From assembly GCA_963845665.1 (NCBI GenBank), contig CAWJTA010000004.1, forward strand, positions 64,428 to 128,427: 64,000 nt of DNA. Reading direction: 5' to 3'. The position numbers were made by a program, and so were the translations under genes. Source of the stretch: an uncultured Verrucomicrobiae bacterium. Its GTDB lineage: Bacteria > Verrucomicrobiota > Verrucomicrobiia > Limisphaerales > UBA11358. A model generated the notes under the pieces. It worked only from the letters and a program-made list of their open reading frames with translations, made no database searches and was not told where the DNA came from. Below are positions 21,784 to 25,744 of this stretch, piece by piece (positions within the stretch are counted from its first letter, which is position 1; every line of letters starts with the position of its first letter).

Positions 21784-22641
21784 TCAATGGGCAAGTTGTT
21801 CGGGTGTTTTTACCAGCGGGACTTCGTTCGACTCGACTCGACGCACGCCGCCCCGAACAATGATGTTGCCGTCGTTGTCCTCGCCCAAACGCGGGCGCGT
21901 GGTGATATAATCGTAAACGTCCCGCTCGACCACTTTGCCGTCCGTGCCAATCACGGAGTAGGTAAAGGCCGTCGCGCCACTTTGGCAGAGCACATGCAAT
22001 CTGCTGGCGCGGTCCAATTGCGCTTCCGGCTGGCTGAAGGATATCATTGGCGCTATCGCTCGCACTTTCAGAACCGTGCCGTCGCTTTCGTCGCTAACCT
22101 GGACGTACAGGCGCAGCTGGTCCTTGAGATAGTTTGCCTCCATCAACGTGTATTTGCGCACGCGCGGGGGCTGGTCGGGCATCTCAGGGTCCGGCACGCC
22201 AAAGGACTGCGACCACATTTGCGACCCTTGAATGACATCAAAACTTGAGGCCGGACTGCCGACGTCCACGTTCCACGCGGCGATGTGGACGTTGGCGGTC
22301 ACGCGGTAAGTCCCGGTGCGCTGTAAATTGAAATAAGGCCCAAGGTTTACCTGCTTGATCGCCACTTCCGAATTATCCAAATCAAAAAAGCCCTTAACCG
22401 GGGGGGCCGATTTCCTCACAACGACCGTGCCATCACTGGATTGTACGAAAAACGACAGCCAGTTCGAATCACCCAAATGCAGCAATTGGCCCGAGTGGTT
22501 GGTGACATGCACGGTGACCACCAAATCTTCGCCCGGCAGAAACTGCCCCTGGTCCAAAGTCATCTCCACAGTTACTTGCGCCGAAGCCTCGAAGGCAAAC
22601 ATCGCCAGCCCGAGGCAAAAAATGCGAAACAGGAATTTCAT
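21784..22641 (-). CDS. Secreted hypothetical protein (beta-rich)
   Basis: Signal peptide MKFLFRIFCLGLAMFAFEASA; only the 3' part of the 636-aa track ORF is credible. Confidence 0.7.
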   Translation of the reverse strand: MKFLFRIFCLGLAMFAFEASAQVTVEMTLDQGQFLPGEDLVVTVHVTNHSGQLLHLGDSNWLSFFVQSSDGTVVVRKSAPPVKGFFDLDNSEVAIKQVNLGPYFNLQRTGTYRVTANVHIAAWNVDVGSPASSFDVIQGSQMWSQSFGVPDPEMPDQPPRVRKYTLMEANYLKDQLRLYVQVSDESDGTVLKVRAIAPMISFSQPEAQLDRASRLHVLCQSGATAFTYSVIGTDGKVVERDVYDYITTRPRLGEDNDGNIIVRGGVRRVESNEVPLVKTPEQLAH

Positions 22642-22813
22642 CGAGAGCATCATTCTAAATGCGCTGTCTCGAACCGCAACATAAATTCTTGTGTTCATTA
22701 ATCCACCAATCTGTCTTGCGGTGATGGCTGGGCACATCCTGACATGCGATGCGTTATGGCAGGTGGCGCTGGCACCGGCGCAACGAGTGTGGTTGGACGC
22801 CGTACCGCGAAAA

Positions 22814-22860
22814 TTCCGCCCGCTGTACGGGCGGTGACGGCGCAGCGCGCCGTCCCTACC
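22814..22860 (-). repeat. REP-like double hairpin, copy A
   Basis: GGTAGGGACGGCGCGCTGCGCCGTCACCGCCCGTACAGCGGGCGGAA; 44/47 identical to 46117-46163. Confidence 0.85.
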
Positions 22861-22908
22861 CCCCAACTTCTGCTTTAATTCTTCGCCGGAAAAACATATT
22901 CTGTCAGA

Positions 22909-23784
22909 ATGAAAGGCATCATCCTTGCCGGCGGTTCCGGGTCGCGGCTGTATCCGCTTACGCTCGTCGCCAGCAAACAGCTTCAACCCGTCTATGATAA
23001 ACCAATGGTTTATTACGCCCTCACGGCGCTCATCGAAGGGGGCATTCGCGAGCTTTGCCTTATTTCCACGCCGCATGATTTGCCGCGGTTCAAGCAGTTG
23101 CTGGGCGACGGCTCGCGCTTTGGAATCTCCATCGGCTATCGCGAACAGCCCAAACCCGAAGGCATTGCCCAGGCCTTTCTCATCGCGGAAAGTTTTATCG
23201 GCAGGGACAATGTCACGTTGATCCTGGGCGACAATATTTTTAACGGCGGCGATTCTTTTTACCGCGTGCTCGGAGAGTTCAAATCCGGCGCGACGATCTT
23301 CGGCTACCACGTCAATGACCCGGAACGTTACGGCGTTGTCGAGTTTAACGATGGCAAGGCCATTTCCATCGAGGAAAAGCCAAAACAGCCCAAGAGCAGT
23401 TACGCCGTGCCCGGAATTTATGTTTATGACAACGACGTGATTGGCATCGCAAAAAATTTGAAGCCGTCCGCGCGCGGAGAGCTGGAAATCACGGACGTGA
23501 ATGTCGCGTATCTGCGCCGTGGCGATCTCAGCGTCCATCGGCTCAACCGTGGTTTTGCCTGGCTGGATGCCGGCACGAGCAGCAGTCTGCACGACGCCAG
23601 CGCATATGTGCAAACGATCGAAAAACGAACGGGAATCAAAATAGGCTGTCCGGAGGAAGCGGCGTTTCGACACGGATTTTTGTCCCTGGAACAACTCGAA
23701 AAACTCGCCGGTGAAATGCCGCGCTGTGAATATCGCGATTACCTGTGCGAAGTGGTCGCCGAAGCAAAACGACTAAAACAATGA
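22909..23784 (+). CDS. rmlA: Glucose-1-phosphate thymidylyltransferase
   Basis: [41 protein letters not shown]. Confidence 0.96.
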
Positions 23785-24731
23785 TTCTCTTACTTGGCGC
23801 ATCAGGCTATATCGGAACCGCTTTTGCGGAAGAATTGCAGCGGCGCAAGCGCGACTTTGTGTCGGTCTCACGGGGACGGTTGGACTATAGCCGATTCGAT
23901 GTGCTGATCGAATTTCTAACGTCAAAGAAACCGGAATTTGTCATCAACGCCGCCGGTTACACCGGCAAGCCAAACGTGGACGCCTGCGAAAACGCAAAGG
24001 CCGACACCCTGGCCGGCAATACGCTGCTGCCGCAAACCATCGCGCACGCGTGCGCGGCGGCCGGCATCCCGTGGGGCCACGTTTCCAGCGGCTGTATTTT
24101 TAGCGGAGCAAAAATAGTCGAAGACGGCCGTGTCACGACGGAAAAAGACATGACCAAACCCGAGGCGCGCGCCGTGTTGGAAAAATCGCCGGATAAGATC
24201 CGGGGTTTCATCGAAACAGACGTGCCCAATTTTTCCTTCCGCGATTTGCCGTGCAGCTTCTACAGCGGCACAAAGGCGCTGGCGGAGGAAGGAATTTCCG
24301 GGGTGGGGCGCAGTTATATTTGGCGTTTGCGGATTCCCTTTGATGAATTTGACAACGCGCGAAATTATTTGAGCAAACTCCAGCGTTACCCAAAGGTTTA
24401 CGACAACGTGAATTCCATATCCCATCGGGCCGATTTCGTCCGGGCCTGTTTGGATCTCTGGGATAAGCGCGCGCCGTTTGGCACCTACAATGTGACCAAT
24501 CAGGGGTTTATCACCAGCCGTCAAGTGATAGAACGGGTCGAGAAGATCCTCAAACCGGGCCGGAAGTTTGAGTTTTGGAAGGATGACAACGAGTTTTACG
24601 GGCAGGCTGCGAAAACGCCGCGCTCCAACTGTGTGATGGATGTGTCGAAACTTTTGGCCGCGGGCGTGAAGATGCGCGACGTGCACGAAGCGCTGGAGGA
24701 TTCGCTGACAAAATGGAAATCAGAAAAATGA
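23781..24731 (+). CDS. NDP-4-keto-6-deoxyglucose reductase of the NRS/ER (3,5-epimerase/4-reductase) type
   Basis: [45 protein letters not shown]; ATGA overlaps with both neighbours. Confidence 0.75.
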
Positions 24732-25744
24732 ATCTTCTCATCACAGGCGGCGCGGGTTTCATCGGCTCAAATGTCATTCACCATGTGATTGACCGTCCCG
24801 AAGTCAGGAAACTCGTCAATCTCGATTGCCTTACTTACGCCGGCCATCTGGGAAATCTAGCGAAAATCTCGAACCATCCAAAATATGTTTTCGAAAAAGT
24901 GGATTTACGCGACAAAACTGAAACGCTTCGCGTGGTGCGGCAGCACGAAATTACCCATGTCATGCACCTGGCGGCCGAATCGCACGTGGACCGTTCCATC
25001 TCCGGGCCGGGGGATTTTATCCATACGAATGTGAACGGCACGTTCCATCTGCTGGAGGCCTGCCGTGCCTGCTGGCCCAACAGCGGCCCATCGGTGCGAT
25101 TTCATCACGTTTCGACCGATGAAGTCTTTGGATCGCTCGGGCCGACTGGATTTTTTACCGAGACGACGCCGTACGCGCCAAATTCGCCCTATTCGGCGAG
25201 CAAAGCCGCCAGCGACATGCTCGTGCGCGCCTACCATCATACTTACGGCCTGCCGACGGTTATCACGAATTGCTCGAACAATTACGGCCCCTATCAATTC
25301 CCTGAAAAATTGATCCCAGTGGTGATTCAAAGCGCGCTGGGACGCAAGCCGATTCCTGTCTATGGCGACGGCATGAACGTTCGAGACTGGCTCTATGTGC
25401 GCGACCATGCGGAAGCGCTTTGGGCCGTATTGGCCCGGGGAGAAACCGGCGAGACCTATAACATTGGCGGCCGAAACGAATGGCCGAACATTCGCATCGT
25501 CGAGACCATTTGCGATTTGATTGACGAACTCAAACCGGCGGCCGGCGGCCAGACCCGAAAATTGATTCAGTTTGTCAAAGACCGTCCCGGGCACGATCGC
25601 CGTTACGCCATCGACGCCTCTAAAATTGAACATGACTTGGGATGGACGCCCGCGCATAAATTCGAAGACGGAATCCGCGAAACGGTGCGGTGGTATATAG
25701 AGAATCAGTCATGGGTCCAGGCAGTGCTGGCGGAGAAAAAGTAA
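24728..25744 (+). CDS. rmlB: dTDP-glucose 4,6-dehydratase
   Basis: [48 protein letters not shown]. Confidence 0.96.

Follow-up and report, generated by a model that had tools for sequence, protein, structure and literature searches.

A verrucomicrobial rml operon with an NRS/ER-type protein, predicted to be a bifunctional 3,5-epimerase/4-reductase, in the place of rmlC and rmlD

How might a bacterium complete the synthesis of deoxythymidine diphosphate (dTDP)-L-rhamnose when its rml operon carries neither rmlC nor rmlD? This question is raised by a three-gene locus of an uncultured Verrucomicrobiae bacterium of the order Limisphaerales (GenBank assembly GCA_963845665.1), which lies in a stretch of 64,000 nucleotides of contig CAWJTA010000004.1 (positions 64,428 to 128,427 of the forward strand; hereafter the window, to which coordinates given without a contig name refer). 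Here, rmlA (22909-23784), a gene that we call X (23781-24731) and rmlB (24728-25744) follow one another as three open reading frames (ORFs) on one strand (+). A first-pass annotation of this DNA had described the three genes as coupled by ATGA overlaps, and both overlaps can be read in the sequence: the start codon of X (ATG, 23781-23783) overlaps the stop codon of rmlA (TGA, 23782-23784), and the start codon of rmlB (ATG, 24728-24730) overlaps the stop codon of X (TGA, 24729-24731), with an ATG at 24713 as a second candidate start for rmlB. The two outer genes have equivalog-level identities, which make this an rml (dTDP-L-rhamnose) operon. The product of rmlA (rfbA; 22909..23784, +) is a glucose-1-phosphate thymidylyltransferase of 291 residues (TIGR01207, 415.2 bits against a cut-off of 360.65; Pfam NTP_transferase, 2.3e-63), and that of rmlB (rfbB; 24728..25744, +) is a dTDP-glucose 4,6-dehydratase of 338 residues (TIGR01181, 481.2 bits against a cut-off of 365.1); the former gene is the sole true copy and the latter the sole close copy in the genome. 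The answer that we propose lies in the middle gene (23781..24731, +), whose product of 316 residues is probably a bifunctional dTDP-4-keto-6-deoxy-D-glucose 3,5-epimerase/4-reductase that takes the place of both RmlC and RmlD in a three-gene operon.

By sequence and phylogeny, X belongs to the NRS/ER (UGER) family of short-chain dehydrogenases/reductases (SDRs). The RmlD profile TIGR01214 reached 72.9 bits on X, over residues 2-127 only, against a cut-off of 224.05 and against the 255-349 bits that it gives on canonical RmlDs of the same order; Pfam RmlD_sub_bind was likewise limited to the N-terminal Rossmann half (residues 2-128). When PDB sequences were searched with phmmer, the top match was Arabidopsis NRS/ER (4qqr, E 5.7e-29), aligned across residues 3-305 of X, and the next was L780 of Mimivirus (7jid, E 6.8e-13), while RmlD structures aligned to residues 1 to ~125 only, at E 9e-9 or worse. 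We also built a maximum-likelihood (ML) tree from X, five close orthologues, 104 family representatives (50% identity), two paralogues from the same genome, NRS/ER and L780, together with 11 canonical RmlDs of the same order and the RmlD-like protein of this genome. In this tree, a single clade (Shimodaira-Hasegawa-like approximate likelihood-ratio test (SH-aLRT) support of 100) unites X with 110 relatives, with NRS/ER and with L780, apart from the 11 RmlDs. A grouping of X with canonical RmlD, which the first-pass annotation had held up as the outcome that would count against it, was therefore not seen, and X joins NRS/ER and L780 with full support instead. The AlphaFold model of X (predicted local distance difference test (pLDDT) 85.6, predicted template-modelling (TM) score 0.86) has an extended SDR fold, and a Foldseek search with this model ranked 7jid (TM 0.88, E 2.7e-22) and 4qqr (TM 0.84) above RmlDs (TM ~0.79).

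The motifs of X fit this placement. All those that the first-pass annotation had listed are present, and their likeness to plant NRS/ER is real: 4qqr is the top PDB match over the full length, and 7jid and 4qqr are the top folds. GKPNVD.CE, GCIF, PRN(F/Y)..K..RY and PRSN are common to X and the Arabidopsis protein, and the RmlD signature STDYVFDG is missing from X, as had been claimed, its counterpart being SSGCIFSG. An identity as RmlD is ruled out by profile score, motif and tree alike; an identity as GDP-L-fucose synthase (Fcl/WcaG) was also rejected, as NF047922 gives 25.3 bits on X against a cut-off of 500.

Alignments made with HMMER and MAFFT place the residues of X that would be needed for both reactions opposite those of L780 and NRS/ER. 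Cys105 (codon TGT, 24093..24095, +; motif SSGCIF), a predicted acid/base of epimerisation, aligns with Cys108 of L780 and with the TGCIF of Arabidopsis. The SDR Tyr-x3-Lys motif, Tyr161 to Lys165 (YSGTK, 24261..24275, +), predicted to serve in 4-keto reduction, aligns with YSKTK in NRS/ER and YSVVK in L780. Lys199 (codon AAA, 24375..24377, +), in a motif of ten residues, is the predicted second acid/base and aligns with the NFITKIARY of Arabidopsis and with Lys175 of L780 (chain residue 178). In L780, Cys108 and Lys175 were recognised as key catalytic residues by analogy with GDP-fucose synthase and confirmed by mutagenesis, according to a review of giant-virus glycobiology (PMC9614988). RmlD has a Tyr at the site of Cys105 (STDYVF) and no Lys at that of Lys199. 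X further carries a GASGYIG nucleotide-binding motif at its N-terminus, and none of the 120 orthologues (78-100% identity) departs from X at Ser103, Cys105, Tyr161, Lys165, Arg184 or Lys199.

From these correspondences we propose the following pathway. RmlA would provide dTDP-glucose, which RmlB would dehydrate to dTDP-4-keto-6-deoxy-D-glucose; X would then bind this intermediate with NAD(P)H and carry out both remaining steps in a single active site. Cys105 and Lys199 would remove protons from C3 and C5, two positions that the 4-keto group renders acidic, and return them so as to form the L-lyxo intermediate; Tyr161 and Lys165 would then promote hydride transfer to C4, yielding dTDP-L-rhamnose. 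The two enzymatic activities, the preference for a dTDP substrate over one linked to uridine diphosphate (UDP) and the L-rhamnose product are predictions that we draw from sequence and gene context, and the use of dTDP is predicted because the operon partners of X are the dTDP-type RmlA and RmlB. X might instead take UDP-sugars, as in plants, and make UDP-L-rhamnose, in which case its position amid rmlA and rmlB would not mean that the three enzymes share a dTDP pathway. Although the characterised members of the family favour UDP substrates, L780 takes dTDP-4-keto-6-deoxyglucose as well as the UDP form (PMC9614988), the genes that X overlaps encode an equivalog-level thymidylyltransferase and dTDP-glucose dehydratase in an arrangement conserved in ~80 species, and X replaces the dTDP-specific RmlC/RmlD in place (see below), all of which makes a UDP-based role highly improbable.

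A second feature of the active-site region sets X and its close relatives apart. Directly after the catalytic Cys, both alignment and model reveal a lineage-specific insert of ~30 residues (X 107-140; 24099..24200, +), modelled as a beta-hairpin and a helix (pLDDT ~68-84). This insert is missing from Arabidopsis NRS/ER, L780, RmlD and the bacterial forms of ~290 residues, and is confined to the clade of X and its paralogues. Two such paralogues, each ~49% identical to X, are encoded in this genome (G000:C1:204526-205491, -, and G000:C2:1958648-1959706, +), both outside rml operons. In the one on contig C1 the catalytic Cys is changed to Gly, the Tyr to Phe, the Lys to Ala and Lys199 to Gln, and in the one on contig C2 the Cys is changed to Asn, so that, as judged by these residues, the operon copy is the only catalytically complete one in the genome. 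Across the paralogue clade (SH-aLRT 99) the catalytic Cys is mostly missing. That the Cys and Lys assigned to epimerisation are invariant in the orthologues of X and lost in paralogues outside the operon speaks against a purely reductive role for X, to which we return below.

If X does the work of both RmlC and RmlD, it might be expected where their genes would otherwise lie, and this is what a comparison within the genus reveals. A congener (G135) has rmlA (85% identical), rmlC, rmlD and rmlB (81%), followed by an orthologue of an S8 protease gene (50%), whereas rmlA, X, rmlB and the S8 protease gene follow one another in the window; since the flanks are orthologous, X occupies the exact slot of rmlC plus rmlD. 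Two other genomes (G016 and G099) have the order rmlA-rmlC-rmlD-rmlB as well, with RmlA and RmlB 78-80% identical to those of the window. The arrangement around X is itself conserved. With each GTDB species represented by one genome, a scan gave 572 stretches encoding relatives of X, and among the best 80 of these 572, which we analysed (68-80% identical), rmlA lies upstream and rmlB downstream of X in most loci; the exceptions are mostly loci that end at a contig end, and four (L058, L060, L069 and L070) have neither gene beside X. No RmlC or RmlD match was found within 8 kb of X in any of these 80 loci. Most of the 80 are labelled Verrucomicrobiota (Limisphaerales, Pedosphaera, 'subdivision 3'), and the ~15 that bear another phylum label or none (Bifidobacteriaceae, Pseudomonadales, Methylomirabilota) are, in our reading, mis-assigned bins.

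The same alternation is seen across the order. We carried out six-frame searches of 151 genomes spanning 86 family codes, taking at least 55% identity as the mark of an X orthologue and E <= 1e-10 as that of an RmlC match, and found X orthologues in 59 genomes and RmlD above its cut-off in 37. RmlC matches were bimodal, scoring 215-258 bits in 32 genomes, where they typically adjoin RmlD, and 118-192 bits elsewhere. (The TIGR01221 cut-off, at 155.75, admits part of this lower mode.) RmlD above cut-off was present in 4 of the 59 genomes with X versus 33 of the 92 without it (Fisher p = 3e-5), and high-scoring RmlC in 1 of the 59 versus 31 of the 92 (Fisher p = 4e-7), both p values ignoring shared ancestry. 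No RmlC-like match at E <= 1e-10 was obtained from 30 of the 59 X-bearing genomes, many of them at least 95% complete, and 27 have neither RmlC nor RmlD; the switch between X and rmlCD occurs even inside one genus. Two apparent exceptions are a genome in which a canonical rmlA-rmlC operon is interrupted by a contig end (G026) and one whose RmlD-type gene is divergent and a long way from rml genes (G076); together with a third, G078, which is described below, they do not overturn the complementary pattern. Conserved synteny, the rmlC-rmlD slot in the congener and this complementary distribution thus strongly back the three-enzyme pathway that the first-pass annotation had proposed.

Does this genome nevertheless hold an RmlC elsewhere? 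The absence of a cupin rmlC, which the first-pass annotation had reported, stands for the operon, for the window and for the whole of the window's contig (C4), in none of which a profile search found an RmlC-like cupin, but it does not extend to the genome. Two RmlC-like genes, C1:626512-627057 and C2:1947978-1948580, score 169.7 and 166.4 bits in hmmscan, above the TIGR01221 cut-off, and a description of this genome as one without rmlC had to be rejected. Both cupins score within the lower of the two modes into which the RmlC matches of the order fall. The one on C1 lies in a heptose-type cluster, with a gene for a GmhA-like isomerase 6 kb upstream and one for a GmhB-nucleotidyltransferase fusion 4 kb downstream, and the one on C2 lies in a cluster of the cytidine diphosphate (CDP)-sugar type, with glucose-1-phosphate cytidylyltransferase-like and C-methyltransferase-like genes. 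Given their low score mode and these neighbours, the automatic name 'dTDP-4-dehydrorhamnose 3,5-epimerase' is probably wrong for both; the two cupins most likely serve other nucleotide sugars and could have some cross-activity.

These cupins bear directly on whether X is a 4-reductase only, a divergent stand-in for RmlD, with 3,5-epimerisation supplied by an RmlC-like cupin encoded elsewhere. Two candidate cupins above the cut-off lend this some support, as does G078, in which an X operon coexists with a high-scoring orphan RmlC. It would, however, leave the invariance of Cys105 and Lys199 without explanation, it has no epimerase to offer in the 30 of 59 X-bearing genomes that lack an RmlC-like match, and in this genome it would have to draw on low-mode cupins from heptose- and CDP-sugar-type clusters. 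We therefore consider such a division of labour quite unlikely. A gene for an RmlD-like SDR is also present (C1:816763-817611, +), with STDLVFDG and YGETK motifs and 166 bits against the TIGR01214 cut-off of 224. As a missing partner for X it was set aside, matches of 150-190 bits being found in most of the 151 genomes irrespective of rml genes. The RmlD-like MAT2B subunit is among the Foldseek matches of X, which indicates that the RmlD-like fold has roles outside rhamnose synthesis.

Several observations weigh against assigning both activities to X. The Fisher tests take no account of relatedness, and genes may be hidden by the incompleteness of metagenome-assembled genomes; four X-bearing genomes do have RmlD above cut-off, and in G078 the X operon is accompanied by that orphan RmlC, located beside two-component regulator genes. 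Because the genome studied here has two RmlC-like cupins above cut-off and an RmlD-like SDR, a canonical route built from scattered genes is possible in this organism. In open-access papers and preprints, we came across no biochemical study of any family member from bacteria. Lastly, X is only ~30-35% identical to NRS/ER and has a ~30-residue insert next to its active site, and its sequence leaves the stereochemistry of reduction unfixed, so that 6-deoxy-L-talose could be made in place of L-rhamnose. These last points also favour a broader alternative, in which X makes another 6-deoxyhexose, be it dTDP-6-deoxy-L-talose, an epimer at one carbon or, by reduction only, dTDP-D-fucose or dTDP-D-quinovose. 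The position of X in the rmlC-rmlD slot, between rmlA and rmlB genes orthologous to those of the congener, and its complementarity to the rhamnose-specific pair across the order both argue for the same end product, and a different sugar seems unlikely to us, if somewhat less so than a reductase paired with a distant cupin. A bifunctional X that replaces RmlC and RmlD is accordingly the reading that we hold to be likely, on the combined weight of residues, slot and distribution.

How does X compare with the systems already known? Arabidopsis NRS/ER (UER1, 4qqr) and the C-terminal domain of RHM have the same SDR fold and the same set of catalytic Thr/Ser, Cys, Tyr-x3-Lys and Lys, yet they are eukaryotic, UDP-preferring and free of the insert, and occur either alone or fused behind a dehydratase, whereas X is bacterial and shares an operon with thymidylyltransferase and dTDP-glucose dehydratase genes. 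L780, a UDP-L-rhamnose synthase (UGER), is the top structural match to X, with catalytic Cys and Lys aligned; unlike X, it is viral, lacks the insert and has the UDP-glucose dehydratase R141 as its partner, and it is ~25% identical to X. Canonical RmlC plus RmlD correspond to X in predicted overall chemistry and in operon slot, and RmlD also has the extended-SDR fold with a similar N-terminal Rossmann half; X differs from this pair in being one protein with no cupin domain, a sub-threshold RmlD score and a clade of its own. The chemistry proposed for X is reminiscent of GDP-L-fucose synthase (GER/GMER/WcaG/Fcl), in which one SDR site uses a Cys and a second acid/base for 3,5-epimerisation and then performs the 4-reduction, but the substrate of that enzyme is derived from GDP-mannose and its similarity to X is weak (PDB matches at E 5e-4 or worse). 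Finally, an RmlC-RmlD fusion from Prymnesium parvum and some bacteria also unites both activities in one polypeptide, and makes dTDP- and UDP-rhamnose (PMC6556577); it does so with a cupin and an RmlD domain, and hence two active sites, whereas X has a single SDR domain and lacks a cupin.

In reviews and surveys, the single-protein epimerase/reductase is described for plants, fungi, algae and giant viruses, and separate RmlB, RmlC and RmlD as the bacterial route. A bacterial order with the 'eukaryotic' type of enzyme in a classical dTDP operon contradicts this textbook generalisation. Genes of the X type are currently annotated as 'dTDP-4-dehydrorhamnose reductase', 'sugar nucleotide-binding protein' or 'UDP-glucose 4,6-dehydratase', although some members of the family are already called '3,5-epimerase/4-reductase' in KEGG-based pipelines, and pathway surveys would count genomes with X as being without rhamnose synthesis. 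For biocatalysis, X would provide a shorter route to dTDP-rhamnose. The chemistry of NRS/ER was already known, and four verrucomicrobial homologues had been noted in 2011 (PMC3220709); what the present analysis would add is the apparent recruitment of such an enzyme into a bacterial dTDP operon, in replacement of RmlC and RmlD.

Bacterial sequences of the X type with a clear functional context can also be used to ask where NRS/ER and RHM came from. For the RHM C-terminal/NRS-ER domain, Yin et al. (2011) reported no more than four homologues in bacteria, every one of them from Verrucomicrobia, and speculated that a prokaryotic donor perhaps already had an integrated epimerase-reductase; neither the operon nor the displacement of rmlCD was described there (PMC3220709). 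The family now appears far larger, with 270 clusters (50% identity) at E <= 1e-30 and 1068 at E <= 1e-10 in an exhaustive HMMER search, most of them forms of ~290 residues without the insert. The contexts that we sampled vary. In a Puniceicoccaceae locus, a short-form X accompanies a family 2 glycosyltransferase gene, an RmlA-like gene two genes away and further glycosyltransferase genes, with no dehydratase gene within 5 kb. A phage-like metagenome contig of 9.5 kb (ENA ERZ1426841) has a run of ORFs of 60-100 residues on one strand and then P0245, an X-type enzyme of 273 residues, with genes for a nucleotidyltransferase like RmlA and a dehydratase like RmlB directly behind it, in what looks like a viral three-gene rhamnose cassette; P0245 is the nearest neighbour in the tree of the pair formed by the Arabidopsis and Mimivirus proteins (support 86). 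The remaining sampled contexts are one stand-alone bacterial gene and one glycan cluster, suspected to be of giant-virus type, that includes DUF5672 and CAP59-like genes. A search with L780 returned giant-virus-like metagenomic sequences only.

Could the verrucomicrobial rmlA-X-rmlB type represent the prokaryotic stock of the NRS/ER and RHM C-terminal domain of eukaryotes and giant viruses, the integrated enzyme having moved into an early eukaryote and later been fused to a dehydratase? The first-pass annotation had raised a connection of this kind. The ML tree is a polytomy at the depth relevant to the origin of the eukaryotic enzyme, and we regard this scenario as doubtful, if somewhat less so than the alternative roles of X discussed above. 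Were it true, a rhamnose route thought to be specific to eukaryotes would be bacterial in origin, and the family, which exceeds 1000 clusters at 50% identity, would constitute a widespread second route to dTDP-rhamnose in bacteria and phages.

The degenerate paralogues may point to a different use of the same fold. Each of the two is directly followed by a gene for a predicted protein of ~440 residues, and the one behind the C2 paralogue has a weak EpsL match and a C-terminal end resembling an outer-membrane beta-barrel. Further downstream of the C2 paralogue lie an exosortase XrtC fragment and a gene for a long tetratricopeptide repeat protein, as in a polysaccharide-export locus, and the paralogues could be pseudo-enzymes or sugar-nucleotide sensors in PEP-CTERM/exosortase polysaccharide loci. 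A metagenome protein of 744 residues from the Joint Genome Institute (P0136) had been called a fusion of such a degenerate paralogue with an EpsL-like beta-barrel. As a true fusion it was rejected, since a signal-peptide-like stretch at ~330-360 makes it probable that two adjacent genes have been read as one.

Split reading frames were also noted in the heptose-type cluster on C1. At C1:628720-629678 (-), two adjacent short ORFs of 113 and 147 residues look by eye like the halves of an HddA-like sugar kinase of the GHMP type, so that a single gene may have been split here or have undergone a frameshift. Farther downstream, an SDR gene is apparently split as well (ORFs 630197-630607 and 630697-631242).

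The DNA around the operon encodes housekeeping functions, with a gene for the E1 component of a 2-oxoacid dehydrogenase upstream and, downstream, the S8 protease gene and genes for UppS and a lipoate ligase. A scan of the locus for promoters and terminators gave no more sites than shuffled sequence. RNA runs were sought as a source of evidence on co-transcription, and none was found; the only runs recovered were three soil DNA runs holding 5-7% of the words. The host of the operon is a soil Verrucomicrobium. Lastly, the ORF list contains a spurious frame of 636 residues that runs antisense through rmlA (window 21784-23694, -). Its C-terminal ~300 residues, read from ~22722 downwards and beginning with a signal-peptide-like start, probably correspond to the actual gene; this part has no Pfam match.

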